A stretch of 64,000 bases of DNA from an uncultured Acidobacteriota bacterium. Lineage in GTDB: Bacteria; Acidobacteriota; Vicinamibacteria; Marinacidobacterales; SMYC01. Positions 2,511 to 43,073 of this stretch are shown piece after piece. The stretch's first letter is position 1. Every line of letters starts with the position of its first letter. Location: contig CAVQUX010000015.1 in NCBI GenBank assembly GCA_963716925.1, positions 308,104 to 372,103 of the forward strand. The letters are read 5' to 3'. A program made the position numbers and the translations under genes. The notes beneath the pieces are model-generated. The model had not been told where the DNA came from. It searched no databases and was given only the letters and a program-made list of their open reading frames with translations.

Positions 2511-5063
2511 ATGTCTGAGCGGCTGCGTCGCGGCGATCCCGGTCGCCGTCGGCCTCGCGCTGTTCCTCGCCGCCCTCGAGGTGCTTCGCGTCGAGCTGCG
2601 GGCGGTCAGTTGGCATGAGCTCACGGCGGACGTGATCCGCACGCCGCCTTCGCAGCTCGTGCTCGCCTTGCTGCTCACGGCCCTCAATTACGCGGCTCTC
2701 ACTGGCTACGACCTGCTGGCGTTCGCCTACATCGGCAAGACGCTTCCGCGCGCGCGTATCGCTCTCGCGTCGTTTCTGGCGTACGCGATTTCCAACAACG
2801 TCGGGTTCGCGATGTTGTCCGGCGCCTCCGTGCGGTATCGCTTCTATACGCGGTGGGGAGTCACGGCCGAGGAGCTCTCGCGGATCGTCTTCTCGTACTC
2901 GGTGACGTTCTGGCTGGGCCTGTTCGGGTTGGGTGGACTGAGCCTCGTCGTCAGTCCCTTGCCGAGCGTGCGCGGTCTGCCCGCGCAGCAGCTCCTGGCG
3001 CCGATCGGTTGGCTGCTCATGCTGGTGCCACCGGCCTATCTGCTGGCAACCGTGGTGCGACGGCGGCCGCTGCGCATCCGGAGCTTCGAGCTGCCGTTGC
3101 CCTCGCCACGGATCGCGGCGGGTCAAGCACTGGTTTCCGCCGTCGACTGGGCCTTGGCGGGGGCCGTGCTCTATGTGTTGTTGCCGCCGAGCGCGCTGTC
3201 CTTTCTGGAGTTCCTCGGCACGTTCCTGGTTGCGATTCTTCTCGGAATGGCCAGTCACGTGCCCGGCGGTATCGGCGTGTTCGAGGGACTGATGGTCCTG
3301 CTCCTCAAGCCGTACCTGACCTCGGGGCAATTACTCCCGGCGCTCGTCGTGTATCGCGCGGTCTACTACCTGCTGCCGCTTACCGTCGCAACCCTCGGCC
3401 TCGTCGCCGACGAAGTGCGGCAGCGCCGCGCCCACGTGGCGCGCATCAGCGCCGTCGTCGGTCAGCTGACGGAGCAGGTCACGCCGCGCGTGCTGGCAGC
3501 CTTCACGTTTCTCGCCGGGCTGGTGTTGCTGTTCTCGGGCGCAACGCCCGCAGCTGCCGGGCGTCTCGAGTCGCTCAATCGGATACTGCCCTCTGGAGTG
3601 ATCGAGGCGTCGCACTTCCTCAGCAGCGTGGCCGGTGCGGCGCTGCTGATTCTGTCGCAAGGGCTGGCGCGGCGCCTCGATGCCGCCTACTACCTCACGG
3701 CAACGACGATCGTCGCCGGGATGGCAGCATCTCTGCTGAAAGGATTCGATTACGAAGAGGCGGTGCTGCTACTGCTGGTCTTCCTGGTGTTGCGGCGGGC
3801 TCGGCCGGCCTTCGATCGCCGCGCGGCCTTTTTCGACACCCGCTTCTCCGCGGCGTGGATCGCGGCACTGGTCGGCGCGCTCGGAGCCTCCGTGTGGCTG
3901 GGCTTGTTCGCGTTCAAGCACGTAGACTACTCGCACGAGCTCTGGTGGCAGTTCGAGGTTCACGGTGAAGCCTCGCGATTTCTCCGAGCCTCGGTCGGTG
4001 CGGTCATCTTCCTGCTGTTGTTTGGATTTGCCCGCTTGATCGGATACGCGCCTCACGAAGCGCCCACCCCGGTCGACGCCGACCTAGAGGACGCCGGAAA
4101 GGCGATCGCCGCACAGACATCGACCTCCCCCTACCTGGTGTATCTCCGGGACAAAGCGCTGCTGTTCAACGACGATCGAACCGCGTTCGTCATGTATGGA
4201 GTCCAGGGTCGCACCTGGGTCGCGCTCGGCGATCCCGTTGGCCCGGACGATCGGCTCAGCGATCTCATTCGCCGCTTCCTCGAACGGTGCGATGATTTTG
4301 GCGGCGTTCCGATCTTTTACGAAGTCGGCAAGACTCACCTGCATCGGTATGCCGACTTCGGCCTGACGTTCGTGAAGCTGGGGGAGGAAGCGAAGGTGGA
4401 CTTGACGACGTTCACAGCTGGAGGGGAGCGAGGCGACCAAATACCGCCAGTCGATTCGTCGGTTGGAGAAAGAAGGGGGCTCCTTTCGCATCGTCGAGCC
4501 CGCTGCCGTTCCAGCGATCATGGACCAGCTCCGCGCGGTGTCCGATGACTGGCTGAGAGCCAAGGCGAGCGCGGAGAAGGGGTTCTCGCTCGGGTTCTTC
4601 GACGAGGCGTACGTCTCCCGGTTCCCCGTCGCCGTCATCGAGCGCGGCGGCCGAATTCAGGCCTTCGCGAACGTCTGGCCCGGGCCAAAGCAGGTGGAGC
4701 TCTCGATCGATCTGATGCGATATCGACCGCGACGCGCCCAAAGGCGTGATGGAGGCTCTTTTCGTCCACTTGATGAAATGGGGCCAGGAGCAGGGGTATC
4801 GCTGGTTCGCGATGGGCATGGCGCCCTTGTCCGGCTTCGAAGACTCGCCCGTAGCCTCGCTCTGGAATCGGCTCGGCGCCTTCCTGTACGAGCACGTCGA
4901 ATCCGTCTACAACTTCCAGGGACTGCGCGCCTACAAGGACAAGTTCAACCCGATCTGGGAGCCGCATTATCTGGCTTATCCGGGTGGCCTTCGCCTGCCG
5001 CGCATCATGGCAGACGTCTCCGCGCTCGTGGCGGGAGGCTATCTGAAGGTCTTTCGAAAGTGA
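2511..5063 (+). CDS. mprF: phosphatidylglycerol lysyltransferase MprF (flippase plus synthase domains), read through about 3 frameshifts
   Basis: MSERLRRG start in one frame, then IPVAVGLALFLAALEVLRVELRAVSWHEL...GGIGVFEG in the next; C-terminal synthase domain split across ORFs 2581-4548, 4463-5134 and 4746-5063 (EKEGGSFRIVEP..., YRWFAMGMAPLSGFE...). Confidence 0.7.
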
Positions 5064-5077
5064 AGTCCGCTTTCGTC

Positions 5078-5506
5078 TCAGACCGTTCTTGGCGGCGGTG
5101 GCATCAACGGACCGCTTCTTGTTCCACAAGGTGATGTGGACAGGAGGCCCTCCCCTTCGCGACGCGCCTTGACGAAGAAGATAGCCGTGGCAACCAGGTT
5201 GTGTCCCTCCGTGCGAAAGCGAACCTGGACCGTGGCACCGACGCCGATCGTGCCCTCGCGCTCCGTGGAACGGCTCAGAACGAACGTCATCTCGCCTGGA
5301 GTCTTGCCGACCCGAGTGATGACGAGCCTGGTCGCATCGACGGACTTCACGACTCCGCTCACCGCGTGGTCGGGCACGGGTTTCTTCGGCGGGGAAGATT
5401 CTGCCGTTGTGTTGGGCGAATCCGCCTGGCCGGCTGCCGCGCCGCCTGCCAGGGGAACCGCCGAAAGTGCCCCGACGAGAAGAGCCGTCGTAATTCCCGT
5501 TACCAT
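5078..5506 (-). CDS. hypothetical secreted protein, single beta-rich repeat related to the 35393/1-276 family
   Basis: MVTGITTALLVGALSAVPLAGGAAAGQA signal peptide, then VSGVVKSVDATRLVITRVGKTPGEMTFVL...GATVQVRF repeat pattern; alternative upstream ATG at 5571. Confidence 0.4.
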   Translation of the reverse strand: MVTGITTALLVGALSAVPLAGGAAAGQADSPNTTAESSPPKKPVPDHAVSGVVKSVDATRLVITRVGKTPGEMTFVLSRSTEREGTIGVGATVQVRFRTEGHNLVATAIFFVKARREGEGLLSTSPCGTRSGPLMPPPPRTV

Positions 5507-5703
5507 CTGAAGCACCCAGCTCTCGGCCTCTTGCCGACTCCGACCAAGTCCCTTTCGCCCCCCGAATGCCATCTCACGAGTCCTGGCGGAAAGGTCTGAT
5601 TGCGGAGGCCTATTCCCCTCATCTACCGCTATTTGACTCGCCCCAGATGAGGGACACCTGATCCTCAGATGAACTCTTGTTAAGGTTCGTGGGCAACCAC
5701 GGC

Positions 5704-7130
5704 CGCGGTAGCCGACAGCCAGCACCCGCCGTCCGTCGGCGCTCAGCTGGTTGCACACCGCGGCGGAGGCTTCCCTCGCGGTCGCATCGAGCGCGGTGAC
5801 CCGTCCGTCGATCTCCTGGGCATCGCAGATCGCGAGCAGGGACTCCGGCGCGCCCTTGGCGATCAGCAGGCGCTGCCGCGGGTCGTCCGGCGTGGACACT
5901 ACCACAGACAAACGGCGACGTTCGAAGTCGAACGGGATTTCGTCTATCTTCGCACAAGCCGAAGCATCGGCCGACGCCGTTTTGAAGAATCGCCGCGTCC
6001 AACGGACTGCGAATGCCCGTCTGAAAACGGCTGTTGAGTGAAGCCAGCGCCAGAGGTCGCGGCGATACCTCACCCGCCGGACCCAGCGAGCGATCGAGGT
6101 GCATCACCCCGGTCGTGAGCGTTCCCGTCTTGTCGGTGCACAGGACGTCGATGCTGCCAAGGTTCTGAATCGCGGGAAGGTGTTTGACGATGACCTTGTC
6201 TCGAGCCATCCGCAGGGCGCCCTGGGTGAGCGTGACCGTTGCGATCATCGGGAGGAACTCCGGTGTCAGCCCGACCCCCAGCGCCACGGCAAAGAGCAGC
6301 GATTCGAGCGCATCGTGCTTGACGACGATGCCCATCAGCAGGATGAAGAGCACCAGCGCGGTGGTCGTTCGCAGAATCAGGAGGCTGAAGCGCCGCAAGC
6401 CGCTTTCGAACTCGGTCTCGGGCACACGGCTGCCCAGTCTCGTGGCGATGTCTCCGAACAGCGTCCTGGGCCCGGTCGCCGTCACGATCGCCGTCGCCGT
6501 TCCGCTGACGACCGACGTACCGAGGAAGACGAGGCCCGGCGCCTCGGGCCCCGTCGTTCGCCGGGTCTCGTCGGCGCTCGCCATCTTGTCCGCCGGCAGC
6601 GATTCGCCCGTCAGCATGGATTGCTGAACCGAGAGATCGCGCGAGTCCAGCAGGCGCGCATCCGCGGGCACGAGATCCCCGGCCGACAGGCGGACTACGT
6701 CTTCAGGGACGAGCTGCCGCAGCGGGACCTCCTGCCAGGTTCCGTCGCGGAGCACGATCGCCGTTGGCGCCACCGTCGCCCGGAGTCGTTCGGCCGCCCG
6801 CTGCGAACGATACGACTGCCAGAAATTGACGCTCACGCTCACCAGGATAATCGTGACGATGATCCCCGCATCGACGTCCTCGCCGAGCCAAGTTGAAACC
6901 GCACTCGCCACGAGCAAGATCAAGACGAGAGGGTTGGCGAACAGGCGACCGATCTCGACCACCGCCGAGAAGCGCCGCGTCGGGGCCGGCTCATTCGGAC
7001 CGTACTCATCGAGGCGGCGTGCGGCCTCGAGGCTCGTCAAGCCGGACGAACGCGGACGCGACTCGGGGTCGCCCGTCCGTTCGCTCAACGGCGCACGTCC
7101 TGGGCGGAGGGCAACTGCGACGCGTCCCAT
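5704..7130 (-). pseudogene. P-type ATPase (MgtA-like) N-terminal two-thirds, frameshifted near 6030 and truncated after the N-domain
   Basis: GLTSLEAARRLDEYGPNEP, TGES, DKTGTLT, then KIDEIPFDFERRRLSVVV...RVLAVGYR in a second frame; no P-domain C-terminus or TM5-10; reading frame runs on into the 5078-5506 ORF. Confidence 0.55.
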
Positions 7131-8536
7131 CCGCCGCCGAGGGCCTGGATCAAGGACACGCTCGCGACCAGGCGTCTGGTGAGGATGTCGACTGCCGCCC
7201 GTTGATTCTGCAGCAAGCTGGTCTGCGAGGTGATGACTTGCAGGTAGTTCGCGAGTCCCCCCGATATTGGATCGTCGAGATGTCAAGCGACTGCTGCGCG
7301 GCTGCGACCGCCCGGTCGACGATCTCTGCCTCGTGGGAGAGGATGCGCAACTCCGCCAGAGCTGTCCTCCACCTGTTGGAATGCCGTCAGTACGGTCTGA
7401 CGGTAATTCGCCACGGTGGCGTCGTAGGCGGCTTCGGTCAGCCTGACTTGAGCGCGGCGCTTGCCCGCGTCGAAGAGCGTCTCGGCCAACTGTACTCCCA
7501 CCGACCAGAGGCGGGTCGGCACCGTGAGCAGGTCGACGATGGCCGCGGCCTGCGAGCCCACGCTGCCGCCGAAGCTCAGGGCGGGGTAGAACGCCGACTT
7601 GGCGACGCCGATCTGTTCGTTCGCTGCCGCGACCTGCCGCTCGGCGGCGGCGACGTCGGGCCGTCGTTCGAGAAGCGTGGAAGGAAGGCCGACGACGACT
7701 GGCGGCGGCGGCGACTGAGTCGGCGCCGCAGGCATCGACAACGCGGACGGTGGCTGTCCGATCAGCACGGCTATGGCGTGCTCGAATTGGGCCCGCGGAA
7801 TGCCCAGGTCGGCCAACTGCGCGCGGGCGGTTTCCAACTGCGTTTGCGCCAGGGCCACGTCGGCCATCGACGCGACACCGCCTTCGTATCGGTCCTTGGT
7901 CAGCTGCACGTACCGTTCGTACGACTGTACGGTGGCCTCGAGCAACCGCCGCTCGGCGTCGAGTCCCTGAATCTGGAAATAGTCGGCGGCGAGTTCCGCC
8001 TGGTACAACAACCGGGCATTCTCCAGGTCCGCGGCGGACGCCTGCGCGACCGCTGAATTTGCCGCGACGCTGCGTCGGATGCTCCCCCAGACGTCCGCTT
8101 GATAGGTCACGTCAATCGGGATGTCGTACAGGCGCACGCCGGACACGGCACCGGTTCCGGAAGCCGTGGCGGACGGGGTCGCGGTCACGGTGGGGAACTG
8201 ACCCGCCCGGGTGACGCGCACGGCCGCCTTGGCCGCGCGGAACTGCGCCTCGGCGGCCAAAACGTTCTGGTTCGAGATGCTCACCTGGTCTTCGAGCGCG
8301 TCGAGCCGCGGGTCGTTGTACGGGCTCCACCACTTGCCGCGGGGTGCGCCGTCGTTGGGCTGCGCTTCCTTCCAGCCGGCGGGCAGCAGCTTCCCCGAAC
8401 GCCGGCGGGGCCGGCACGTCAGGACGCTGGTACTTCGGACCGATCAGCGCAGGCGTTCGAACGAGCAGCACGCCGAGCCGCGCGAAGCGGGGAGCACGGT
8501 CATAGCGATCCGGTCGATCGGACCGCGTTCATTCAT
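7085..8536 (-). CDS. outer-membrane efflux protein (OMF/TolC/NodT family), at least 3 frameshifts
   Basis: [12 protein letters not shown]...[16 protein letters not shown]...[14 protein letters not shown]...LGGGWDASQ assembled from 4 frames; a 6-G run at about 7245 would restore the frame with 7 Gs. Confidence 0.7.
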
Positions 8537-9766
8537 ACCGCAGCGCCTCGATCGGATCCAGGAACGCCGCCTTGCGCGCCGGGTAGTAGCCAAAGAACAC
8601 GCCCACCAGCGCCGAGAAGAGAAACGACGTCAGGATCGACAGCGCGCTGACCTCGGTGGACCATTGCGCGAAGTGCGAGATCGAGCACCGACGCCGTCAG
8701 CCCGACCACGATCCCGATGATTCCACCGAGCAGGGAGAGCGTCACGGCTTCCACCAGGAACTGCGAGAGGATGTCGCGGCGTCTTGGCGCCGACGGCCAG
8801 CCGCAGGCCGATCTCGCGCGTGCGTTCGGTCACCGAGACCAGCATGATGTTCATGATCCCGATGCCGCCGACGATCAGCGACACCGACGCGATCGCGCCC
8901 AGCAGAATCGACATCACTTGCGCCGAGGTTTCCTGGGCGGCGAACACCTCGGTGAGATTGCGGATCGTGAAGTCGTCCTCCAGACCCGGCAGGATCCGGT
9001 GCCGCTCGCGCAGCAGCGCCTCCATCTCCTGGATCGCCTGGTCCATGGCCTGCGGGCTCATGGCCTGCACCATCAGCGAGCCGACCGCCTTGGCGTTGGC
9101 CTTGTTGGCGCCGAGGACCTTCTGCTTGGCCGTGGAGATCGGCAGCAGGATGACGTCGTCCTGGTCCTGACCCGTCGGTGACTGGCCCTTCGGCGTCAGC
9201 ACGCCCGCGACGGTGAACGGCACGTTCTTGATGATGACGACCTGACCGGTGGGATCGCTGTCGCCGAACAGATTCGTCGCGACGGTTTCACCCAGCACGG
9301 CGGTTTTGGCGGCGGCATCCACGTCCTGCGTCGTGAAGAACTGGCCGGACAACATCGTGTAGTCGCGGATCGTCATGTAGTCCGGAGTCACTCCCTGGAC
9401 GGTCGTGGCCCAGTTGTTGTTGCCGTACACCACCTGCACGCCGCCGCGCACGGTAGGGGCGACGAGCGCGACGGACGGGCACTCGGCCGCGATGGCCTTC
9501 GCGTCGTCTTCCGTCAACGTGGCGACGCCGCCGGAGCCGAGCCGGACGCCGTTGCTGCTGATGCTGCCCGGCAGCACGATGATCAGGTTGCTGCCGATGC
9601 TCTGAATCTGCTCCTGGATCCGCGCGGTCGCGCCGTCGCCCACACCCACCATGGCGATCACCGCCGCGACGCCGATGATGATACCGAGCATCGTGAGCGC
9701 CGAGCGCGTGCGGTTCACCTCCAGCGCGCGCAACGCGATCTTCACGCTGGTGAGGAGCTTCTTCAT
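8529..9766 (-). CDS. MacB/FtsX-type ABC transporter permease (separate from the ATPase), at least 2 frameshifts near the C-terminus
   Basis: [15 protein letters not shown]...[10 protein letters not shown]..., then [18 protein letters not shown], then [19 protein letters not shown] in three frames; ATGA overlap with upstream ATPase stop. Confidence 0.75.
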
Positions 9767-10523
9767 GCCGACACCACCTCGTCCGCCGGATCGGCGGGAA
9801 GCTGCTCCAGCTCCTTCCGGGCATCGCGCGGCTGCTCGATCCGCTCGTCCCGCCGCAGTCTGCCATCTTTGAAGTGCAGCGTCCGGTTCGCGTAGCTCGC
9901 GATGTCGGGATCGTGCGTGACGACGATCAGGGTGATCCCCTCGTCGCGGTTCAGACGCTGGAAGATCGCCATGATCTCGACGCCGGTCCTCGAGTCCAGC
10001 GCTCCGGTGGGCTCGTCCGCCAGGATGATCCGGGGATCGTTCACCAGTGACCGCGCGATGGCCACGCGCTGCTGCTGGCCGCCGGAAAGCTGGCTCGGTT
10101 GATGCTCTTCGCGTCCGGCGAGCCCCACCGCGAGCAGCGCCTTCCGCGCCCGCTCCCGGCGCTCGGGCGCGGACGCGTCGGTATACATCAGCGGCAGTTC
10201 GACGTTCTCCGCGGCGCTGGTCCGCGCCAGCAGGTTGAACTGCTGGAAGACGAACCCGATCTTCTTGTTGCGGATCTCCGCCAGCTGGTCGCGATCGAGC
10301 GCTCCGACGCTGATGCCGTCCAGCATGTAACTCCCGGACGTCGGCTTGTCGAGGCACCCGAGAATGTTCATGAGGGTCGATTTACCGGATCCCGACGGAC
10401 CCATGATCGAGACGAACTCCCCGCGCTCGATCTCGAACGAGATGCCCTTGAGCACGTGTACCGGCACGTCCCCCAGCGTGGAAGTCCTTGACCAGATCCT
10501 TGACTTCGATGATCGACTGCCAT
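9763..10523 (-). CDS. ABC transporter ATP-binding protein (MacB/LolD-like), 1 frameshift at the N-terminus
   Basis: Walker [25 protein letters not shown], Walker [12 protein letters not shown]; N-terminal [15 protein letters not shown] is out of frame with [10 protein letters not shown] at a CCCCC run near 10475. Confidence 0.8.
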
Positions 10524-10528: not shown

Positions 10529-11905
10529 TCAGAATCCCGGTCCTCTGCGCCCGCCTGCGGGAGCCGGGACTACCGCCCGACTCGGGGGCTGCCTTCGCCA
10601 GCGCCGCGACGATCACGCGGTCGCCGTCCTTCAGGCCGCCCATCGGTCACCTCCGTGAAGGTGCCGTCGGTCTCGCCGGTACTGACCACGACACGGTGCG
10701 GCCTGTCGTTCACGTCCAGGATCCAGACAGCCTTTTCCGGTGCGGCGCCCTTCTCGACGCTGGCTGCTTCCGTTCGGGGCTCGGGGTGATAACGAAGGGC
10801 GGCGTTGGGGATCTTCAGCACATTCGGCCGCTGATTCACGAGAATCTTCACGTTCGCCGTCATGCCGGGAAACAGCTTCAGCTCCGTATTCGACACGCCA
10901 ATCACGGCGTCGTAGGTGATCACGTTCTGCACGTTGATGGGGGCCTTGCGGATCGGAGGTCACGGTGCCGGTGAAAGTCTGCCCTGGATAGGCATCCACG
11001 GTGAACGTGGCAGACTGGTTCACTCGCACGCGTCCCACGTCCGCTTCCGACACGTTCGTGTCCACCTGCATCTTCGTCAGGTCCTGCGCGATCAAAAACA
11101 ACGTGGGAGCCGCCAGGCTGGCAGCAACCGTCTGCCCGACATCCACGTTCCGTGACACCACGATGCCGTCCACCGGCGCCTTGATGTTCGTGTGATCCAG
11201 GTCGATCTGGGCCGACTGCAATGCCGCGGTGAACTGCTTCACCTGCGCCTGGTTGGAAGTCATCAGCGATTTCGCCACGTTCAATTGAGCCTGCGCCACC
11301 TTCACGCTGTCTTCCATCGCAGTCTGCTGCGCCATGAGGGCGTCGAGATCGGCCACCGCCGACTTGTACGTCGTCTGGGCGGTTTCGAGATCCTCTTTGG
11401 AGTCCGCGTCCTGACTGACCATGATCACGCGCCGATCGACCTTGACCTTGGCGTCCTCGGCGATAGCCTGTGCTTTCACGACATTCGCTTTGGCAGCGGC
11501 GAGCGAAGAGTTGGCGGCCTGAATGCCCGCCAGCGCCTGCTGAACCACGGCCTGGCTGTTGGCGACGGCGGCTCGGGCGGCGGCGACGTTCGCCTGTGCC
11601 TGATTCACCCTCGTCTGGAAGGGGGCCGGATCGATCTGGGCGATCAGCTCTCCCTTGGTTACCTTGGTGTTGAAGTCGGCGAACAACGCCAGAATATTGC
11701 CTGACACCTGCGAGCCCACTTGCACGGTGACGACCGCGTTGGGGTTCCCGGTGGCCGAGATGGTGACGTTGATGTCGCCGTGTTCGATCGTCGCCGTTCG
11801 GTATCGAACGCCGGACCGACTGCCGAGCCAGGCCCACGTCAGCAGCCCGGCAATCGCGCACGTGATGGCGCCAGCCAGGACAACCGTCTTCCTCTGCATA
11901 CTCAT
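10529..11905 (-). CDS. HlyD/MacA-family membrane fusion protein, 2 frameshifts
   Basis: TM anchor, long coiled-coil ([10 protein letters not shown]...), barrel/MP domain continues in ORFs 10570-10932 and 10368-10643 ([10 protein letters not shown]..., LKDGDRVIV). Confidence 0.7.
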
Positions 11906-14520: not shown

Positions 14521-14594
14521 TGAATTACTATGGACCCGGCCGCGCGGCGCGTGCGAACGCCTCAGCGAAGGCACCGGACAGACAGGGGGTGGGT

Positions 14595-16670: not shown

Positions 16671-16863
16671 CCTTGGCCTCTGTCGCACCGGCGCCCATCG
16701 CTCGAGCTTCCGTAGGACGCTCGAGAAGCCACTTTGCGGCATTGAGGAGAGATCGCCCCTTCAGGTTCGCCTCAGGTCGCGGCGAGCAAATAGTAAGTCG
16801 ATTGACAGAGTGTCATCCGGCGCGTTGTTCCGCGCAAAGGACTCGACATGTGATCGAAAGGCC

Positions 16864-29638: not shown

Positions 29639-31770
<2,132 letters not shown>

Positions 31771-31901: not shown

Positions 31902-32780
31902 ATGAGACGAATAGGCGCTCTCGAATTTGCCTTCGCGCTGATGCTTGTTCCCGGCCGCTCGATGGCGGGCCAGGAGGCGCTCTATACCGACGGAGAGCTC
32001 GAAGATTGCCTCCTGGCCGACCTGTCGCATCTCGACATCCACGGTCTCGACGTCCGGGTCGTCGGGGGCATGGTCGACGTTTCGGGCGAAGTGGGAAGTC
32101 TGGCCGAGAAGAAGGAAGCGGAATCGACGATAAGGCGAAGATCGCAGGTGCGCGACGTCTCCAACGAGCTTCGAGTGGCGCAGGTTCCCGATGCCGAGCT
32201 GCAGCGAGACGTCCTGGCGGCGCTCGAGGACAGCCGCCACTACACGATTTACGACGAGCTGAGCGCATCCGTCTCCGGAGGTGTCGTGACTCTCGCCGGT
32301 CGCGTGCCTCGGGACAGCGCTCTCGACGGAGTCGTGAGCGACCTGTCAAAGGTGCGGGGCGTCCGCGCGATCCAGAACGAGGTGCGAATCCTTCCCTACA
32401 CTCCGGAAGAGGAAAAGCTGCAGGAAGGGGTAGCCATCGACGTCTCGGCGGCTCTGGTGAAGCTCGATCGACGAACTTCTTCCCTCCATGTCGTCATCGA
32501 GAACGACACGGTCACTTTGAGCGGGATGGTCGGGGACGACATTGCGAGGAGAGCCGCGGAAGAGGCAGCCCGTCGATCGGCAGGCGTAAAAGAGGTACAG
32601 AATCGGCTCCGGATCGGGGAGCCCTGGACGCGACCGCGATCCTCGATACCGGAAGACTCTATCGATCGCGGCACGGAGCTTGCGAAGGCTCCCCGCGCCA
32701 CGGCTGCCCGCGCCTTTGCACGGCAGGACGGGTCACACCGCTATGCGGGGATAGACCTGGGCAGCAATGATCACAAGTAG
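31902..32780 (+). CDS. BON-domain periplasmic protein (three or four BON repeats)
   Basis: Signal peptide MRRIGALEFAFALMLVPGRSMAG; repeated BON-like segments. Confidence 0.65.
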   Translation: MRRIGALEFAFALMLVPGRSMAGQEALYTDGELEDCLLADLSHLDIHGLDVRVVGGMVDVSGEVGSLAEKKEAESTIRRRSQVRDVSNELRVAQVPDAELQRDVLAALEDSRHYTIYDELSASVSGGVVTLAGRVPRDSALDGVVSDLSKVRGVRAIQNEVRILPYTPEEEKLQEGVAIDVSAALVKLDRRTSSLHVVIENDTVTLSGMVGDDIARRAAEEAARRSAGVKEVQNRLRIGEPWTRPRSSIPEDSIDRGTELAKAPRATAARAFARQDGSHRYAGIDLGSNDHK

Positions 32781-33029
32781 AGTCGTGGTCGAAAGGAGCA
32801 GCAGGAAATCCGTGCCAATGCCAAAGATGCTGGTTCCTCCCGCAATCATGAAAGCTCGAAGCACATCGACCTCGTAGCTGAGCGGGTTGATCCGCGCAAC
32901 GAGACGCAACCAATCGGGCATGATCGCCAACGGGTAGATGGCGTTGCTGGCGAAGAATAGAGGCATCGTCAGGATCTGCCCGATCCCCATGAACCGCTCG
33001 CGAGTCTTGACGATGGCTGCGATGATCAA
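32733..33029 (-). pseudogene. C-terminal fragment of an ABC-2-type transporter permease
   Basis: Last 2-3 TM helices only (…INPLSYEVDVLRA…); no upstream remainder of the gene; overlaps the 3' end of the BON gene. Confidence 0.4.
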
Positions 33030-33099
33030 CGAAAGGGTGGCGAAGCAGCCGCGCCACCGCTATGTGCGCGCGGGGCGGACTGCTTTCCTCTCACGGGAC

Positions 33100-33847
33100 G
33101 TCGGGAGTGGCGCGGCCCGCCGCGCTCCTCTCCGACGATGAGAAACAGCCATTTGACCAGGCGGGTGGTCACCTCCTCGACATGCAGCGCCGGGTGGGCC
33201 GTCTGGATGAGCTCGGTCGTTCGGCCGAAGTACGTCCCAACGCCGGTCGCCACGACGACAGCGGTGGCCTCACCCCGACGAACGCTCGATCCGGAGTAAA
33301 CGGCTTCGTCCGCCGCCCTTTTGGCCTCCTGAGATTCTCCCGTCAGTGCAGACTGGTCCACCCGCAACTCGCCCTCGAGGATGAGTGCGTCGGCGGGGAC
33401 GATATCCCCCGCACGCACGCGCACCACGTCGCCTTTCACCAGCTCACGCGCTGCGAGAGGCTTCCAGGTCCCGTCGCGAAGCACTCGAGCCGTGACCTGG
33501 AGCCGGCGCCGAAGAGCGGACACGGCCGCCGAGGCGCGTTGCTCGTGCAGGAAACCGAGGGTCGCGTTCACCGTGAGCAGCGCGAGGGCGTTCCAGAAGT
33601 CAGCCCGCTTGTCGAGAATGAGGGAGAGGGCCACGATCAGCTCGAGCATCCACGCGGAAAGCCCCCAGAATTTGCTCGCGAGTCGAGCGAGCGGGTGAGC
33701 GCTCTTCTCGGGAACCTCGTTCGCACCCTCCCGGTCCAGCCTGAGCCTCGCCTCGGCAGCGGTCAGACCGGCCTCGCGGCTCGAGCCGAGGAATTGAATG
33801 GCGTCCGTCGCGGACTGGACCGGTTTGTGCGGTTCGATATCGGGCAT
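33100..33847 (-). pseudogene. N-terminal fragment of a P-type ATPase (PMA/H+ or Mg2+ type): TM1-2 plus actuator domain only
   Basis: GLTAAEARLRLDREGANEVPEK, TM helices, VLRDGTWKP...GDIVPADALILEG...ALTGES, then loss of homology; no DKTGT region follows. Confidence 0.5.
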
Positions 33848-34140: not shown

Positions 34141-34257
34141 CTCCGGTTGCTCCTGGTGCAGGAACTCCTGCGCCGAGCCGAAAGTCCCGACGCCGAGCCC
34201 CACCGAGCGGAGGAGACTGCTGAGTGCTTCGCGAATAGGTGGGGCGTCATCAATCAC
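34141..34257 (-). pseudogene. N-terminal 39 aa of a FixJ/NarL-type receiver domain, on the opposite strand and head-on to the previous fragment
   Basis: MIDDAPPIREALSSLLRSVGLGVGTFGSAQEFLHQEQPE; the two halves converge at about 34115-34140, implying an inversion breakpoint inside one receiver gene. Confidence 0.4.
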
Positions 34258-34457
34258 ATACTGGCTCGGCTTCCTTCATGACCGACGCTCTGGCCTCTTC
34301 GCACCTAAGTGCAGTCTTACCACGACCATGTCAACAGGGATCGGCCGCGGGACCGGCGACCGAACCGAGGCGACGAGAAACAGGTTCTCCTGCCTTGCTC
34401 TTCCCTGTGCTCTCTCGGGCCAGTCAGCTCCCCGCGCACCCCCGGAAAGCGGGCAAG

Positions 34458-35392: not shown

Positions 35393-35974
35393 ATGATGGT
35401 ACATCGAATCATGTCGGTAGTGAGCCTCGGCGCCCTTCTTACGCTGTCGGCCGGTATAGCCGCGGCGCAAGAGAAGAAATATGAAGGCGAAATCGTCACC
35501 GTCGATACCAAGGACTACACTTTCACCGTCAAGGGTACGGCGAAGGGAGAAGTCGCCGAAATGAAGTTTCACGTCGGCAGGGAGAGCGAAGTTGTCGTCG
35601 ACGGCGAACGGAAGATTTTCGCGGAGCTCGGCAAGGGAGATCAAGTGACCGTCGAGTATGGAACCTCGGACGGAAAGCACACGGTGAAGCGCGCGGAGCG
35701 ACACAAGACCGCCGCGAAGGAGATGGCGCTCACCGGACAGGTGATCGCCGTTGATGCTGCCGCCCACACGTTTACCGTAAAGCGGAGCCAGGGCGGGCCG
35801 GTGGAGGAGATGAAGTTCCACGTCAACCCGACGACGCGGATCTATATCGGGACAGATCATCTCGAGCTCCTGAAACAGCTTCAGAAGGGAGACGACGTGA
35901 CCGTGCACTACATCAACGAGAGCGGAAACCAAATGGTCAGGCACGTAAGCAAGGCGAAGGCCAAGACGACCTGA
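35393..35974 (+). CDS. small secreted tandem-repeat protein (two repeats of about 75 aa), unknown function
   Basis: Signal peptide; repeat 1 EGEIVTVDTKDYTFTVKGTAKGEVAEMKFHVGRESEVVVDGE...; repeat 2 LTGQVIAVDAAAHTFTVKRSQGGPVEEMKFHVNPTTRIYIG... Confidence 0.6.
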   Translation: MMVHRIMSVVSLGALLTLSAGIAAAQEKKYEGEIVTVDTKDYTFTVKGTAKGEVAEMKFHVGRESEVVVDGERKIFAELGKGDQVTVEYGTSDGKHTVKRAERHKTAAKEMALTGQVIAVDAAAHTFTVKRSQGGPVEEMKFHVNPTTRIYIGTDHLELLKQLQKGDDVTVHYINESGNQMVRHVSKAKAKTT

Positions 35975-36122: not shown

Positions 36123-37520
36123 TTACTCCCGCGCAGCCGCGAGGAGGGCACGTGCGATCGCATCGTAGTTGCCCCCGAAGTGATGCGATCCCTCAAGCGG
36201 CATGAGCTCCCAGCGCGCGGCATCGAGCTTCCGGCAGAGCGAGTCCGTTTCCTCCGTGCCGTAAACGCACAAGAGCCTGGGTGCGGTCAGCTTCTGCGCC
36301 TCGGGGAGCACTGGACGATTGTCGGGTCTCGTCGTCCCCGGAAGCCAATCCGTCAGATGAAATTCGAAATCAACGTCAGGGCTCGGCCCCAGGAGTGCCA
36401 CGACGCGTAGGCGCGCCGCGAGATCCGGAGATAGCCGGTTAGCGAGAAACGGAAGGACGTCCGCCCCGAGGGAGTAACCCACGAGAACCGCCGCCCGCTT
36501 GTTCCACCGGCTGAGATAGTGACTGAGGACGTTCGCCAGATCCGCTGCGGCGCCCTCCGGCGTTCGTCGGGTCCAGAAGTATCGAAGCGAATCGAGCCCG
36601 ACGACGGGGACGCCTTCCGCGGCCATTGCAGAAGCGAGCTCGCGGTCCAATCCGACCCAACCACCGTCCCCGCTCAGAAGGAGGGCGAAAACGTCCGACG
36701 TTCCCTGCGCTTCGACCTCCACGAGGGGCAGCCCGGTGAGATCGACTTCCGCCGGCTTCGGCGCGCCCCGCGGGGGCGTCAAGTCGGCGAACGCCGTCTT
36801 GAACTGCGGCATCCAGTTTCTTTGGACCGAGAACCCGTGCCCCACTTTGTCCAGAAGCACAATACGTGCCCCGCCGACCTTCTGAACGTATTCCTGGACC
36901 GACTTCGGGTCGCACACTTGATCCACGCTCCCCTGAAATGCGATCCACGGCGTTTCGAGGCGAGGCGCTGGCTCGAAGCTCACACCCTTGCCTTTAGGAC
37001 CGGCCTTCCACTCGAGGCCGTTGCCGCGGCAAAGAGGTTTCGTGAGCGGAAGGTCCGGGCAGAATCCCATGCTGATCGCGCCTCCGAACGTACCCGTCGG
37101 CGCCTGGACGAGAATCGCGTACACCAGGGTCGCTCCCGACGAGTAGCCCACGAGGATCGGCGAAACGTAGTTGGGGTATCCGAGCTTCTTCTGAACGAAT
37201 TGGCTCAACGCCTCGAAATCGGCGGCCGGATACGAGCAGGATCCCTTCGCGGACGCGAGCGACTTCTGGTAGGCCGTGATATCGATGCCGACCACGAGCG
37301 CGTCGAGCGAAGCGAGCGCTTCGGCCATGTCGACGACTCCGAGGTTCCAGCCTCCGTCGCCCGAAACGAACAGCACCACGCGTGACGGATGCTGGGAGTT
37401 CCGATACAAAGCGACCGCGCCAAATGGGCCGAACTCGATCGACTCGACGGCGCTCTCCGCGTTCGCGACGAGAGTACCGGCGAGGACGATAGAAGCCAAA
37501 GCGAGTCTGCGGTCCATCAT
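36123..37520 (-). CDS. AcvB/VirJ-family protein with two tandem alpha/beta-hydrolase-like domains (lysyl-PG hydrolase candidate)
   Basis: Signal peptide; two SGDGGW-type motifs (VLFVSGDGGW, ALLLSGDGGW); 466 aa from MMDRRLALASIVLAG. Confidence 0.65.
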   Translation of the reverse strand: MMDRRLALASIVLAGTLVANAESAVESIEFGPFGAVALYRNSQHPSRVVLFVSGDGGWNLGVVDMAEALASLDALVVGIDITAYQKSLASAKGSCSYPAADFEALSQFVQKKLGYPNYVSPILVGYSSGATLVYAILVQAPTGTFGGAISMGFCPDLPLTKPLCRGNGLEWKAGPKGKGVSFEPAPRLETPWIAFQGSVDQVCDPKSVQEYVQKVGGARIVLLDKVGHGFSVQRNWMPQFKTAFADLTPPRGAPKPAEVDLTGLPLVEVEAQGTSDVFALLLSGDGGWVGLDRELASAMAAEGVPVVGLDSLRYFWTRRTPEGAAADLANVLSHYLSRWNKRAAVLVGYSLGADVLPFLANRLSPDLAARLRVVALLGPSPDVDFEFHLTDWLPGTTRPDNRPVLPEAQKLTAPRLLCVYGTEETDSLCRKLDAARWELMPLEGSHHFGGNYDAIARALLAAARE

Positions 37521-37609
37521 TGCTGCGAGCGTCGAGATGGCGGAAGTCTCGAAAGAGCGGCGGAGGATTCCGCCGCCCGCGCCCGTGGCCTCGCCCGCTG
37601 TGCCTTGGC

Positions 37610-37798
37610 TCATAACGTCGAGGTGTTTGAAGGGAGGGCGAGAAGCTGCTCCAGCCTAGTCAGGCGCTCGCTCTGGGCGGTGACGAGCTCGGCGAGAGCC
37701 GCCCACTGATGCTCGCGCGCGGCGTCCAGCTTCTCGTGCAGCCTCATGGTCTCCATCTCGGCACGCCGGTTCACTTCGTAGTCGGTCTTCTCGTCCAA
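37610..37798 (-). CDS. small hypothetical protein (62 aa, helical)
   Basis: ORF only; start not resolved against the downstream AcvB ORF; no recognisable motif. Confidence 0.25.
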   Translation of the reverse strand: MDEKTDYEVNRRAEMETMRLHEKLDAAREHQWAALAELVTAQSERLTRLEQLLALPSNTSTL

Positions 37799-37875
37799 TA
37801 GGTCCTTCGCCCTAGCAAAGGGAAGTTCCGCATTTCCCTATTTTGCCCCTCCGAGACTTCGCGTCGGGAGACTTT

Positions 37876-38862
37876 TCAGCCGCTCTTCTTGTCGTGGCCG
37901 TAGTACTCGAAGGCGGACATCGGCTTTTCGCCCCCGATCTTCCAGGGCCTTCGATCCCGCTCCATCTTTCCCAGCGCGATCGCCATCTCCCGGATGTGCG
38001 TCGCCACGACGCCGCAGCAGGCTCCGATGTAGCGGATGCCGGCGTCGTTCGCCTTTCGGGCGTAGTCCGCCATCTGATGCCGGGACCACTGCAAGGGGTC
38101 GAGCCCCGTAGGAAACTCGGGAAGACTGGTGAAGTCGGGCTTGCCCTTCGGCGTGTGATAGCCGGCGGGCTGGGTCGCGACGTAGACGTCGACCGCCTCG
38201 ACCATCTGCTCCGCGAGCGGAAGCGTGGTGTCCGGATTGCGGAGGCAGTTGATGCCGACGATGTCGCACCCGGCGTCCCGAAGGGCCCGGGCGCAGTCGG
38301 CCGGCGTCTTGCCGTCCGAGGTGACGTCCTTCTCTTCGAAGCTCATGGTGACCATCACCGGAAGCCCCGTGCTCTTCGCCCGCTCGGCCGCGATGAGCGC
38401 CTCTCCGAGCCACGAGAACGTCTCGCCGATGATGAAATCGACGCCGGCTTCGACCTGCTGTCTCAGCTGCTCGTCGAAGGTCGCGGCCACCCGGGCTCGG
38501 GCCTTCTCGCTTCCCTCCTCGTACATCCAGGTGAGGCTCAGGTTCCCGGCGACGAGGCATCGGTCCGATGCGGCGTCGCGCGCGATTCGAACGGCGGTGC
38601 GGTTCAGCTCTTCCACCTTGTCCTCGAGCCCGACGGTCGCGAGCTTGTCGCGGCTCGCGTAGAACGTGAGCGCCTGGAGCACGTCGGCTCCCGCCTCTCG
38701 AAACTCGACGTGGAGCTCGTGGAGGGCCGAGGGGCGCTCGAGCACCACTTCGGGCGTGAACGGGCCGGCTCGCACCCAGCCCCGTTTTTCGAGCTCGAGG
38801 AGGTAGCCTCCATCGCCGAGGACCGGGCCTTCTTCGAGTCGTTCGAGTATGTTCTTCTTCAT
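37876..38862 (-). CDS. homocysteine S-methyltransferase-family protein (BHMT/MmuM-like)
   Basis: Pterin-binding-type TIM barrel pattern with GINCLRNP and GACCG (zinc-binding Cys) motifs; 328 aa; ATGA overlap with upstream gene. Confidence 0.65.
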   Translation of the reverse strand: MKKNILERLEEGPVLGDGGYLLELEKRGWVRAGPFTPEVVLERPSALHELHVEFREAGADVLQALTFYASRDKLATVGLEDKVEELNRTAVRIARDAASDRCLVAGNLSLTWMYEEGSEKARARVAATFDEQLRQQVEAGVDFIIGETFSWLGEALIAAERAKSTGLPVMVTMSFEEKDVTSDGKTPADCARALRDAGCDIVGINCLRNPDTTLPLAEQMVEAVDVYVATQPAGYHTPKGKPDFTSLPEFPTGLDPLQWSRHQMADYARKANDAGIRYIGACCGVVATHIREMAIALGKMERDRRPWKIGGEKPMSAFEYYGHDKKSG

Positions 38863-40469
38863 CGCGATCTCCTCTTGCGAAAGTCTTTCAACGCCTGATG
38901 GGCGGCATTGTAGCCGGGAGCGCCGGTGACGCCGCCACCGGGATGGGCGCCCGCGCCAGCGAGGTACAGCCCCTCGACCGGCGTCCGGTACTGGGCCCAA
39001 CCGGGAACGGGGCGCATGAAGAACAGCTGCTCCAGGCTCAGGTCGCCGTGGAAGATGTTCCCCTCGGTGAGGCCATAGATACGCTCGAGATCCAGAGGCG
39101 TCAGGACCTGCCGCGCGAGGACGCTCCCGGGAACGTTCTTCGCGTAGCGGCCGATGATCTCGACCACGCGGTCCCCGAGCCACTCCCGCTTCTCGTCCCA
39201 GCTTCCCGCTCTCAGGCGATAGGGAACGTACTGCACGAAACAGGTCATCACGTGCTTTCCCGCCGGAGCCAGCGAGGGGTCGACGTTCGACGCCACGACG
39301 CAATCCACCCAGAGGTCCTCGGGGATCTCTCCGAGCTTCGCCTTGTCGTAGCACCGCTCGGCGTACTCCGCTGAGGGAACGAGGGTGAAGAGCGAGCGGC
39401 GGTTGGGATCCGCGTCCGGGGGCATTCCCGTGACCTTCGGCTCCTCCGCGAGCACCAGGTTCACTTTCGCGCTCGGCCCGTCCATCTTGATGCCGGCGAC
39501 GGCGCTCCGAAAATCCTCGGGAAGCGCCTTCGGTTCGACGAGCTTCAGGAAAGTTCTCTTGGGGTCGGCGTTCGAGAGTACGAAGCGCGATCCGATCTCG
39601 CTTCCGTCCTCGAGCACCACACCTCGCGAGGTGCCGTCGTCGACGGCTATTCTCGCGACGGGAGCGCCCGGTCCGGATCTCGACCCCGGCCTTTCGGCAG
39701 GCGGACGCCATCGCCTGGGTGATCGCTCCCATTCCCCCCATCACGTGGCCGTAGAAACCCTGGAGGTCGTGGTCGCCTCCGCTCAGAAGGTGGAACAGGA
39801 GACCGATCGCCGTCCCCGCCTGGTAAGGTCCGCCGTGCTTCCCGTAGACGTTGTTGGCGACGTACATCGTCTTCACCACGTCGGAGGTGAAGTTGCGATC
39901 GAGGAAGTCGCCGAGGCTCCCGGTGAGGAACGAGACCATGCGGGCGATCTCGTCGCCTTTTATGCCGCGGAACCGCCGGCCGATGCGGGAGAGCTCCATG
40001 AACCCGGATATGCCCTTGAGATCCACGTCGGGAGGCGGCTCGAGGAAGAACGGCTGAAGGTAGCGCGCGAGCCTTTTGAGCTCCGAGTCGACGGCGAGGA
40101 ACCGGGCGCCGTCCGTCTTCGAGTAGCGGCTCCATTCGGAAGCGGTGCGCTCGGGATCGGGCCACCAGGGGACGACGTTCCCATCGGGAAACGCGACCTG
40201 CATGCCGGGCTCGCAGGGCACCATCCGCAGCCCGTGCGAGGGAAGATCGAGATCGCGAATCACCTCGGGCCGGAGCATGCTCGCGATGTAGGAAGTGGTC
40301 GAGGCCCGGCAGCCGGGGGCGATCTCCTCGGTGACGGCGCAGCCGCCGACGATGTCGCGTCGCTCGAGGACGAGAGTCGAGAGCCCCCGCGGGCGAGGTA
40401 GAAGGCGGCGGTCAGTCCGTTGTGGCCGGCGCCGATGACGATGGCGTCGTAGCGGGTCTTCGAGGTCAA
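38859..40469 (-). CDS. phytoene-desaturase-family FAD/NAD(P)-dependent oxidoreductase (CrtI-like), 2 frameshifts
   Basis: YDAIVIGAGHNGLTAAFYLARGG dinucleotide fold; C-terminal ...GLYLAGAGAHPGGGVTGAPGYNAA; the listed 948-aa ORF 37876-40722 is a read-through artefact joining this gene, wrong-frame Arg-rich sequence, and the methyltransferase. Confidence 0.65.
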
Positions 40470-40651
40470 GAGGCGGGAGTATATACCGAGGCTCTAGGGG
40501 ACTCCGAGATGGAAGAGGTCGGCCTGGCCCGAAGGGCGGGAGTAAACGAAAGTGGAAAGATCTCGAGAGAAGTCGTAGAGAGTCGTCCGACGCTGGGCCG
40601 TGGAAAACAAACGGCAGCCTGACGGCTACTTCGGGATTTCCCGCCTCTCCG

Positions 40652-43073
40652 TCATTCCAGCTCACGCGGTAGACAGCGGTCTCGAGCTCGCCTGGAAACC
40701 GCGTATAGAATCGAACGACCATCGACTGCGGACCGGACCGTCATCGTGAGAATTCCCGGCACCAAGGGAATGCAGCGCTTTTCCAGGAGGGACACAACGT
40801 AGATTCCCCTGGGTTCGACCGGACGAAGCTCCGAGGAGGAACTTCCCACCAGGGAGGTAATCCGTGACCATCGCGCATCCTTCCAGAATCTTTTCTGCCG
40901 GAGCGCTGTCGGCGCTGACCTTCCAGATGTCCAATCCCTGGGCGCTGGCGTAATGAAAACCTTCGGGTGACCAGACCAACCAGCCCACGAACTCTTTGAA
41001 GAGTCGATATCTCCCTGAGATTGCATTCCGTCCACGCCGACGGTGAAGATCTTGTGGTCTCCCGCGGTGTGGTCGGTAAAGCTGACATGAGATCCGTCGG
41101 GGGACCACGCACCCGTCGTCAGCAGAGCGACGGAAGCAAGTTTCCGCTGGTTTCTTCCATCGATATCCGAAACCCAGAGTTCCATGTCTCCCTGTTGAGG
41201 CGAGGTTTTGAACATCACGCGCTTCCCGTCGGGGGAAACGATCGGCTCGGACGCCCACTCGTTCACGAGGTCGATTGTCGCGCCCGTCTTCGCGTTATAA
41301 GCAGTCAGACGACCGGAGGTCTTTCCGCTCACGAAATAGAATCCATTCCCCGAAGGATCGGCCATGGGCGAAAAATCCGGACCAGGCCCGAACGTGAGTT
41401 GAGTGAAGGTGCGCTTGCCGAGGTCGTACTTCCAGATGTTGGTGAGATTCTGGACCGTTCGATTGAGAAGGAGAGTCTCGCCTGGCTCGCCCCATTCCGC
41501 GCTCGTCAGGAAGTCGAGGGTACCCAGGTCCTCGGCCGTACGGGATTCTCGATTGACTCTATGGAGCTGAATTCCCGGAGAACCCGAAGGACGCGTGCCT
41601 GCTAAGAGATGCTTCTGATCGGGATAGAGAAGGTAAAACTCAAGAAAATCTTCGAATCGGTATATCTCTTGCTCGTTTAGTCCCGAGCTCGAAGACTGGA
41701 AAATGGCGCGGCGCTCCCATTTTGTGTAGTAGAACGTGCTTCCATCGCTCGACGGTATCAAGCCGACGCCCGTGACGAGTGGTCGAGGGGCGCCTCCGAG
41801 TGTGGGGACTGCCCATTCCTCACCTCTGCCCAGCGTTTGGTAGTAGATCTCTGTTCCGTCTGGCGAGAAGCCGTCGACGAAGCTTGTCGCCCCCATCCCG
41901 GGTCAACTGCAAGGGCTCCCCGCCGGAGGTCAGCATGACGAATACTTGAAGGACGGAAGAGACGTACGAGCCGAAGGCCACGGTGTGACCATCCGGCGAA
42001 AGCACAGCCCACTCCATGATCTTGTTCCACCGGCTGATTTGTTTCAGCTGTGGAGGAGGCGAAGGCCGGGAAGTCCAGAGCCAGTATCCCGCCCAAACGA
42101 GGGCGAGGAGAACGGGGATCACGGCAGCCATCCGGAATCGAGAACCGAAACCGGAACGGCGCGGTTGCGGCTGCGCGACACGATCGCCCCGATTCCAACT
42201 CCCGCTTCAGCCGCTTCAAGTCCGTGCGAAGCTCGGCGGCGGTCTGGTAGCGTAGGTCCCGATCCTTCTCCAGGGCCTTCGAAACGATCTTCTCGAGCTC
42301 CGCCGGCAGCCGCGGATTTTGCTTCAGGATCGATGACGGCTCACGGTTCAGGACCGCCTCGAAAATCACCGCGGACGTGTTTCCCGGAAAAGCTTGTTGA
42401 CCCGTGGCCATTTCGTAGAGAACGGCGCCGAGCGAAAAGACGTCCGTGCGCGAATCCAGCTCTTCGCCCGCGAGCCTGCTCGGGCGACATGTAGGAAACC
42501 GTTCCCACCGCGGCGCCCGGGCTCGTCAAGAGTCTTTCGGCTGTCGCCGGACGTCGAATCCGCTGCTTTGCCCGCCGATCATGCGGACGAGCTTGGCGAG
42601 ACCGAAGTCCAGAATCTTCGCCTGGCCCCTCGGCGTCACGAAAAGGTTCGCGGGCTTCACGTCGCGATGGATGATTCCTTTCGCGTGAGCCGCCTCGAGA
42701 CCATCGGCGATTTGGATTCCCAGCTCCAGAATCTCCGCGGTTCCCAGGGGCCCGCATCGACCAGCTGCTTGAGGGTCTTCCCCTCGAGGTATTCCATCAC
42801 GATGAAATGGGTGGACTCGCCGCTCTCGGAGCGGACGCCGGTATCGACGTCGTGGATGGTGCAGATATTCGGGTGATTGAGGGCGGAAGCCGCACGCGCT
42901 TCCCTCTGAAATCGTTCGAGGGCTTGTGGATCCTGCGAAAGCTCCTCGGGCAGAAACTTCAGAGCTACGCGGCGGCCGAGCTTCGTGTCCTCGGCGGAAT
43001 AGACGATGCCCATTCCGCCCCCGCCGAGGCGCTCCAGGATTCGGTAGTGGGAGATTCGATTGCTTGGGAGCAC
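40652..43073 (-). CDS. Hanks-type Ser/Thr protein kinase with TM segment and C-terminal TolB-like (PD40/WD40) beta-propeller, at least 5 frameshifts
   Basis: [24 protein letters not shown]; HRDVKPAN.., [16 protein letters not shown] in shifted frames; [20 protein letters not shown]; repeated SPDG motifs in the propeller. Confidence 0.65.

Follow-up and report, generated by a model that had tools for sequence, protein, structure and literature searches.

Is the organism behind this DNA losing conserved genes, or is its published sequence faulty? The window, meaning the whole 64,000-nt stretch that we analysed, comes from an uncultured Acidobacteriota bacterium, and many of its recognisable genes can be read through only by changing frame. 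A sequence-only reading had counted at least 12 such genes, all of them conserved, in the interval from about 2.5 to 43 kb, and had attributed the +1/-1 shifts to sequencing or assembly error rather than to pseudogenisation. In the present study, we located the frame breaks by alignment to orthologues and compared the affected regions with a nearly identical public sequence. We found that the breaks are very probably not mutations but consensus errors, arising in a metagenome assembly that was prone to error and most likely built from long reads. The lesions are private to the assembly, are ±1 nt in size, are biased toward insertion, do not depend on homopolymers, and are accompanied by no other sign of decay.

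Sequences compared

Frame breaks were identified by frameshift-aware alignment to orthologues from JGI and Logan contigs, in which the genes are intact. The Logan matches included runs ERR12036786 and ERR15459708, which hold the same proteins. The affected genes are 77-94% identical to their orthologues, and events within 5066-36129 were compared only with these more distant sequences. A scan of GTDB species genomes with glgP yielded only relatives at or below 84% identity, in which synteny was slight, and a literature search for the accessions gave no match. Outside that interval, the comparison sequence was the public contig_56072 (ENA ERZ25039492), which is 99.3% identical to the window over positions 1-5065 and 98.3% identical over 37861-47271. 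The outer-membrane factor gene was also aligned at the DNA level to contigs L081 and L083, and the kinase gene to L084. The protein that gave the top glgX match (P0121) is no close relative; it has an internal duplication.

Frame breaks in 13 genes

The alignments revealed 52 events in 13 genes, spanning 2,533-42,755. They comprise 42 insertions of 1 nt, seven deletions of 1 nt (p=4e-7 for the excess of insertions), and three complex differences, so that 49 of the 52 are single-base changes. The affected genes and two related features are as follows.

2493-5060, plus strand: mprF (lysyl-phosphatidylglycerol synthase), 855 codons; single-base insertions at 2534, 4418, and 4727
5798-7091, minus strand: truncated P-type ATPase relic (residues about 43-456 of about 860); insertion at 5971
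7088-8536, minus strand: outer-membrane factor (OEP family), 483 codons; insertions at about 7360, 8388, and 8446; deletions at 7261 (6-base run), 8460, and, doubtfully, 8525
8532-9766, minus strand: MacB-type ABC permease, 411 codons; insertions at about 8683 and 8781
9766-10522, minus strand: ABC ATPase; insertions at about 10477 and 10516
10532-11905, minus strand: membrane fusion protein; insertions at about 10641 and 10956; complex 8-nt difference at about 10556
13309-14332, minus strand: PP2C/SpoIIE phosphatase; insertion at about 14010
14577-15267, plus strand: OmpR-type response regulator; insertion at 14838
16852-19408, plus strand: alpha-glucan phosphorylase glgP, 852 codons; insertion at about 18881
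23337-24943, minus strand: protein of about 560 aa, earlier called secreted kinase-like; shifts at about 24305 and 24627
29639-31743, plus strand: glycogen debranching enzyme glgX, 697 codons; 17 shifts (14-15 insertions, 2-3 deletions)
38873-40493, minus strand: FAD/amine-oxidase-like oxidoreductase; insertion at about 39667; deletion at about 40384 in a 5-base run
40503-43013, minus strand: Ser/Thr kinase with a TolB/Tricorn-like propeller, 830 codons; 10 insertions, one deletion
37876-40722, minus strand: artefactual read-through ORF of 948 aa
43841-63505, no strand assigned: error-free block; ten ORFs, each spanning its NCBIfam model end to end in one frame

The earlier estimate of at least 12 genes held, and its counts for mprF (about 3), the permease (about 2), the phosphatase (1), the response regulator (1), glgP (1), and the oxidoreductase (2) agree with ours. 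Its lower bounds for glgX (more than 8) and the Ser/Thr kinase (more than 5) were exceeded, with 17 and 11 events, respectively. Elsewhere the shifts were real and their number differed: five to six in the outer-membrane factor (about 3 had been given), two in the efflux ATPase (1), and two in the secreted kinase-like protein (more than 2). The membrane fusion protein has the two shifts proposed and one complex event on top of them. The event in the P-type ATPase relic had not been listed before. This relic is a Cation_ATPase fragment followed by a DUF5666 gene. We found no Pfam family for the protein of about 560 aa.

Once corrected, the genes look intact. There was no in-frame stop in 5,469 aligned codons, including those of mprF (81% amino acid identity to the JGI orthologues), the outer-membrane factor (79% in the protein-to-DNA alignment), the kinase (87% to P0241), and glgX, the catalytic motifs of which are intact. 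All 120 orthologues of the MacB-type permease are 411 aa long and 89-93% identical, and the corrected gene has 411 codons.

Comparison with a near-identical contig

All 16 events that orthologue alignment had predicted in the regions shared with contig_56072 proved to be 1-nt differences confined to the window (14 extra and two missing bases). These are all three mprF insertions, each an extra C, both oxidoreductase events, and all 11 kinase events. In contig_56072, mprF (849 aa) and the oxidoreductase gene (536 aa) are intact. This contig in turn bears private indels of its own at places where the window is intact, in OPT, M20 peptidase, and kinase genes and, with five of them, in the ADOP permease gene; some lie within the error-free block of the window. 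In L083, which is a third contig from that assembly, the response regulator, histidine kinase, and PP2C genes bear seven private insertions and one private deletion.

The SNPs between the two strains have a pN/pS of 0.17 overall (mprF, 0.20; oxidoreductase gene, 0.06), and the only remaining coding indels are two in-frame differences of 6 nt each. The SNPs between the two contigs look selected; the indels do not.

Gene decay and recoding

If the lesions were genuine, the strain would carry dozens of frameshift mutations and would be losing these genes. Their concentration in certain genes and absence from others is a pattern that selection would give, and the window contains genuinely truncated genes (relics of two P-type ATPases, an ABC-2 C-terminus, and an NTP-transferase N-terminus), so that some of the decay in it is real and occurs next to the artefacts. 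However, 52 neutral indels should have been accompanied by 5-17 stop codons, given a probability of 0.032 that a substitution creates a stop and 3-10 substitutions per indel, a ratio taken from bacterial mutation spectra; none was observed. Bacterial mutation is biased towards deletion, and the 42 insertions against seven deletions run opposite to this bias, which argues for an artefact. A single gene carries up to 17 lesions and keeps all its conserved motifs. Compared with L081, the corrected genes have a dN/dS of 0.11 to 0.20-0.22, like that of the intact L081-L083 pair, although this test and pN/pS are weak for very recent inactivation. In the kinase gene, about 14 indels stand against some 30 SNPs (the latter figure is estimated) between strains. 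Together with the absence of all 16 testable lesions from a strain that has a different private set, these results make genuine decay highly improbable and strongly support the original attribution to sequencing or assembly error. Pseudogene-rich genomes in decay, such as those of Mycobacterium leprae and recent host-restricted pathogens, likewise have many frameshifted conserved genes, but they show nonsense codons, deletions of varied sizes, relaxed selection, and lesions common to close strains, none of which we found in the window.

Another reading holds that the extra bases are real and strain-private, in an insertion-prone lineage or subpopulation that very recently acquired +1 insertions outside repeats in selected genes, before any substitution or stop could follow. 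We consider this very improbable.

Programmed recoding, by ribosomal or transcriptional slippage, could restore the frames in vivo. Nothing specific speaks for it beyond the functional appearance of the corrected proteins, whereas the 52 sites have no motif in common, lack slippery runs, and are not conserved in orthologues; in the 99% identical strain, these positions carry no shift. Recoding is effectively refuted.

Homopolymers and the type of error

The sequence-only reading had placed the shifts often at homopolymer runs and had seen in them the indel errors of flow-based or long-read sequencing. This part of the proposal was not supported. Runs of at least four identical bases lie within ±3 nt of three of 48 events, against 8.1% expected by chance (p=0.76), and near just one of the 42 insertions. 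Enrichment was confined to deletions, three of seven of which (7261, 40384, and 42753) are at such runs (p=0.015), those at 7261 and 40384 being in 6- and 5-base runs.

Events adjoining runs of at least five are essentially the two that the earlier reader had pinned. The first, given as a 6-G run at about 7245, is real: one nucleotide is missing in or beside the 6-base run 7257-7262. At the second, a CCCCC run at about 10475, a stray base beside the run fits better than a change of run length: the orthologues read H/K-L-G-E-V-P, and without the G that follows CAC the sequence becomes HLGDVP, whereas the proposed shortening of the run gives HAGDVP.

The insertions are also unlike copies of their neighbours. 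Two of 36 unambiguously duplicate an adjacent base, compared with 24.5% under random insertion (p=0.003). In the near-identical alignments, the inserted base stands between two different bases, as in CAG[C]TGG and GAG[A]TTG, and 11 of the 15 insertions resolved against contig_56072 are unlike either neighbour. With 85% of events being run-independent single-base insertions, the pattern is not the one left by homopolymer miscalls in flow-based or classic nanopore data. Miscalls of homopolymer length, as in 454, Ion Torrent, or early nanopore data, would account for the deletions at runs, but they are very unlikely to be the main cause. The signature is unusual in that neighbour-differing insertions outside homopolymers fit the textbook profile of no known platform. 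This mismatch and the depletion of neighbour-duplicating insertions count against the artefact account.

Possible origin of the errors

Indel errors in nanopore consensus sequences fragment gene calls, and about 40x coverage is needed (PMC9262707). The acknowledged indel problem extends to Flye metagenomes of soil MAGs polished with one Medaka round (PMC12313526). In one collapsed long-read assembly, allelic variants close to each other are reported to have led to misalignment and thereby to indel errors and apparent frameshifts (PMC8445201). The window resembles the long-read (nanopore or PacBio CLR) case known as the 'IDEEL' problem in its single-base indels, split ORFs, and otherwise intact genes; in that problem, errors depend on local support and are removed by polishing. 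It differs in that the published signature consists of homopolymer indels, largely deletions, whereas 85% of the events here are insertions outside runs with a base usually unlike both neighbours. The coexistence of two 98-99% identical sequences as separate contigs, seen in the assembly of the sister contig only and not in the source of the window, recalls collapsed haplotypes.

Under the consensus-error reading, the consensus would have gained stray single bases and, more rarely, lost a base from a run wherever a patch of the contig had poor support. Gene callers would then break up intact genes and produce Arg-rich read-through ORFs. The cause was presumably low or mixed read support, which we infer because two 98-99% identical strains occur as separate contigs. 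A nanopore assembly with one polishing round would fit; contig names in the sister ENA assembly (ERZ25039492) are Flye-style.

Several more specific origins were considered and rejected. A methylation motif was not indicated, as no k-mer of 4-6 nt showed convincing enrichment in the ±7 nt around the insertions (best uncorrected p 0.001; GATC not significant). A model in which both alleles of a wobble SNP are written side by side is suggestive at most, being weakly favoured: wobble-pair ties accounted for 20 of 36 insertions versus 46% at random (p=0.15). Unlike collapsed-haplotype artefacts, the insertions are not clustered near inter-strain SNPs (one of 14 within 5 nt, with 9.6% expected). 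Patches resembling raw reads, with substitution errors, would give an excess of amino acid mismatches near indels, and none was seen (81.4% identity near indels vs 82.6%, p=0.11). A general trait of nanopore soil MAGs is not involved, as only two of 80 glgP loci, many from such MAGs, are frameshifted.

Patchiness

The earlier remark that the shifts are not uniformly distributed was correct: the verified coding sequence between 43.8 and 63.5 kb, 14.6 kb in total, has none. Frameshifts suspected within this part, at about 48771, 56950, and 60838, turned out to be ordinary gene boundaries. Differences in coverage are a plausible basis for the patchiness. Its extremes weigh against the artefact account: glgX, the gene with the highest density (8 events per kb), has eight events packed into 163 nt (30396-30559), and 20 kb elsewhere has none.

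Consequences for annotation

The frame breaks are a data-quality artefact and not a real biological feature. The 533-kb contig, which is public at NCBI and ENA, contains up to eight frame-breaking errors per kb in patches, and its users should be warned accordingly. Claims of gene loss for this organism (mprF, the efflux operon, the glycogen genes, and the kinase) should not rest on the present sequence. Because the errors are insertions outside homopolymers, most of them would escape polishing or filters that target homopolymers. Automatic annotation will give split proteins, along with pseudogenes and Arg-rich ORFs that do not exist, and such fragments are already present in protein databases. 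The 948-aa ORF, previously suspected of being a read-through artefact, is indeed of this kind. It joins a homocysteine S-methyltransferase gene to the out-of-frame middle and the in-frame start of the oxidoreductase gene, and its out-of-frame middle contains 25.5% Arg, compared with 9.5% elsewhere in the ORF.

Mapping of the frame breaks

The window has a G+C content of 60-69%. A six-frame Viterbi path based on codon usage switched frame on the same strand at many points at 2.5-43 kb and never inside genes past 43.2 kb. We mapped the events gene by gene with a custom profile-to-DNA aligner, in which shifts of ±1 and ±2 were allowed and stops were penalised; the oxidoreductase junctions were judged by eye and backed by a Pfam Amino_oxidase match across both. 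Thirteen genes gave 52 events: 42 single-base insertions, 7 single-base deletions, and 3 complex events. Each affected gene was aligned over nearly its full length; identity was 77-94% against close orthologues and about 50% against distant references, and no in-frame stop was found in the 5,469 aligned codons. The gap sites were reproduced by direct DNA alignment to orthologues of about 85% identity. The sequence-only reading had held that conserved genes here need frame shifts to be read through; with 52 events mapped in 13 genes, these shifts are real, and its per-gene counts were matched or surpassed by those of the aligner. When the sequence was read at the two sites that it had pinned (about 7245 and 10475), a frame change was required at both: correction of the first recovered the C-terminal motif of the outer-membrane factor (12 protein letters), and correction of the second recovered the Walker-A region of the ABC ATPase.

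Searching proteins for matches to the stitched MacB-type permease recovered 120 orthologues; each is 411 aa long and 89-93% identical, and several are labelled Bryobacteraceae. The whole efflux operon is present on two JGI contigs (L081 and L082) and one ENA contig (L083, ERZ25039492 contig_22748), which carry two permease orthologues. At 2165-7620 of L083, genes are split by its own single-base insertions: the N-terminal domain of a glucodextranase stands apart from GH15, and the response regulator (RR), histidine kinase (HK), and PP2C phosphatase genes are affected. A scan of species genomes for glgP gave distant relatives only, with little synteny. Additional references came from searches with the stitched glgX and with the Ser/Thr kinase, whose best match lies on contig L084; PP2C and RR/HK orthologues were also taken from the metagenome scan with mprF, and references for a family-less protein of 560 aa from a search of 50%-identity cluster representatives. 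In the top-scoring glgX homologue, P0121 (ENA, 853 aa), about 150 aa of the catalytic region are internally duplicated, probably through misassembly of that record.

Error or gene decay

By exact-sequence look-up, 7 of the 10 window proteins tried were found in the public collection, on a contig of 533,265 bp (NCBI and ENA). Near-identical proteins, with the ADOP permease in pieces, are encoded by a 197,409-bp ENA contig (ERZ25039492 contig_56072) from the same assembly as L083. Its identity to the window is 99.3% at 1-5065, 94% at 36130-37811, and 98.3% at 37861-47271, and both mprF (849 aa) and the oxidoreductase gene (536 aa) are intact in it. All 16 events predicted in the overlap (3 in mprF, 2 in the oxidoreductase, and 11 in the kinase) were single-base differences private to the window, 14 being extra bases and 2 being missing bases in or beside runs. 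Where the window stays in frame, contig_56072 in turn carries single-base indels of its own (3 in the kinase, 1 in OPT, 2 in an M20 peptidase, and 5 in ADOP), and L083 has seven insertions and one deletion private to it in the RR, HK, and PP2C genes. The lesions thus track the assembly, not the lineage.

The window and contig_56072 differ by 253 substitutions, of which the 163 in seven scored genes gave a pN/pS of 0.17; the substitutions thus represent real strain variation under a selective filter. The single-base indels between the two contigs show no trace of such a filter; apart from them, the coding sequences differ in length only by two in-frame 6-nt indels.

Bacterial mutation spectra contain 3-10 substitutions per indel and have a deletional bias. 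If the 52 indels were neutral, 5-17 stops would be predicted from this range and the measured 3.2% stop chance per substitution; none was seen. Insertions outnumbered deletions 42:7 (p=4e-7), opposite to the bacterial bias. Against L081, the corrected operon genes had a dN/dS of 0.11-0.20, indistinguishable from that of the intact pair L081-L083. Amino-acid identity was the same near the events (within 8 codons) as farther off, so the indels arrive without substitution damage. The view that the breaks are sequencing or assembly errors and not pseudogenisation is therefore correct, as all testable events are private to the window, stops are absent, and dN/dS is low.

Nanopore consensus retains indels that fragment gene calls unless about 40x coverage or polishing is available (PMC9262707), and a large soil MAG project that used Flye --meta and one Medaka round screened its assemblies for errors of this kind (PMC12313526). 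Judging by contig names alone, the window contig may derive from such a project. The frame breaks are an artefact of low biological interest, and a practical concern for users of the sequence record.

Sequence context and distribution of the events

The frame changes had been described as often lying at homopolymer runs. Overall, they did not co-localise with runs of at least 4 identical bases, which lay within ±3 nt of 3 of 48 events vs 8.1% of random positions (p=0.76); for runs of at least 5, the values were 2 of 48 and 1.9%. Divided by type, runs of at least 4 were near 3 of 7 deletions (p=0.015) and 1 of 42 insertions, and the homopolymer attribution is wrong for the insertions, which make up 85% of the events. 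We re-scored which base is removable in each insertion, with 4,000 simulated random insertions as the null; insertions duplicating a neighbouring base were rarer than random (2/36 vs 24.5%, p=0.003). At the second pinned site, the best repair was to drop the G between CAC and CTG, not to shorten the run. Because run proximity is at chance, neighbour duplicates are depleted, and this site is repaired outside the run, the description is untenable.

The events were strongly clustered (coefficient of variation of gaps, 2.07), with densities per kb of 8.1 in glgX (8 in 163 nt), 4.4 in the kinase, and 0.4 in glgP. The HK gene had no event, nor, on ORF and codon-path evidence, did the methyltransferase gene; the VirJ-like gene had no reliable event, one call near its poorly conserved N-terminus being doubtful. 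At 43.8-63.5 kb, ten ORFs span NCBIfam models end to end, and zero events there would have a probability of about 1e-16 at the left-hand rate. Long-read assembly that collapses close variants reportedly introduces indel errors and apparent frameshifts (PMC8445201). Local read support, given two strains 98-99% identical, is the obvious candidate cause of the patches. The idea that the consensus records the two alleles of a polymorphic site one after the other was weakly supported. We found no sequence motif enriched at the events and no link of the insertions to SNPs between the two strains. GATC lies within 7 nt of 7 of the 42 window insertions, and both private insertions in the contig_56072 ADOP gene (L167 9239-11895) lie directly 5' of GAGATCG; neither is statistically significant.

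A possibly strain-specific segment beside mprF

Listed below are mprF, the two genes that flank it, and three paralogues scattered through the window.

1705-2502, VirJ/AcvB-like hydrolase, 265 aa, flanks mprF
2493-5060, mprF, between two VirJ/AcvB-like hydrolase genes
36123-37613, VirJ/AcvB-like hydrolase, 496 aa, flanks mprF
3-368, - strand, small secreted paralogue, DUF5666-like repeat
5156-5509, - strand, small secreted paralogue, DUF5666-like repeat
35406-35969, + strand, small secreted paralogue, DUF5666-like repeat

The three scattered paralogues share the repeat YxGEIVxVDTKDYTFTVKG; relatives retain one of them beside mprF, and a VirJ-like gene adjoins mprF in the JGI relatives too.

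In the 99% identical contig_56072, 12 nt stand in place of window 5066-36129 (31,064 nt); there, mprF and the 496-aa VirJ-like gene are convergent immediate neighbours, and the two segment junctions fall in the intergenic spacer. The segment is either specific to one strain or deleted in the other. No tRNA or integrase was seen within it. Proteins at least 90% identical to those of the flank and of the segment carry different source labels: the flank ATPase (54716-55819) clusters with proteins labelled Vicinamibacteria, and the segment permease (8532-9766) with proteins labelled Bryobacteraceae. This difference may point to horizontal acquisition of the segment.

Truly truncated gene relics lie inside the segment at 5798-7091, 33137-33790, 32736-33059, 28085-28579, and about 34180-34275. 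Two of them are N-terminal parts of P-type ATPases, one of which is adjoined by the C-terminus of an ABC-2 permease; the others are an NTP-transferase cut down to its N-terminal half and a stub, about 30 aa long, of a receiver domain. They cannot be explained by single-base errors. Beside the junction, the VirJ-like gene (36130-37811, against L166 14267-15948 on contig_56072) is 94% identical between the strains, with a pN/pS of 0.20, vs 98-99% in the flanks; it looks like a divergent tract, possibly recombined.
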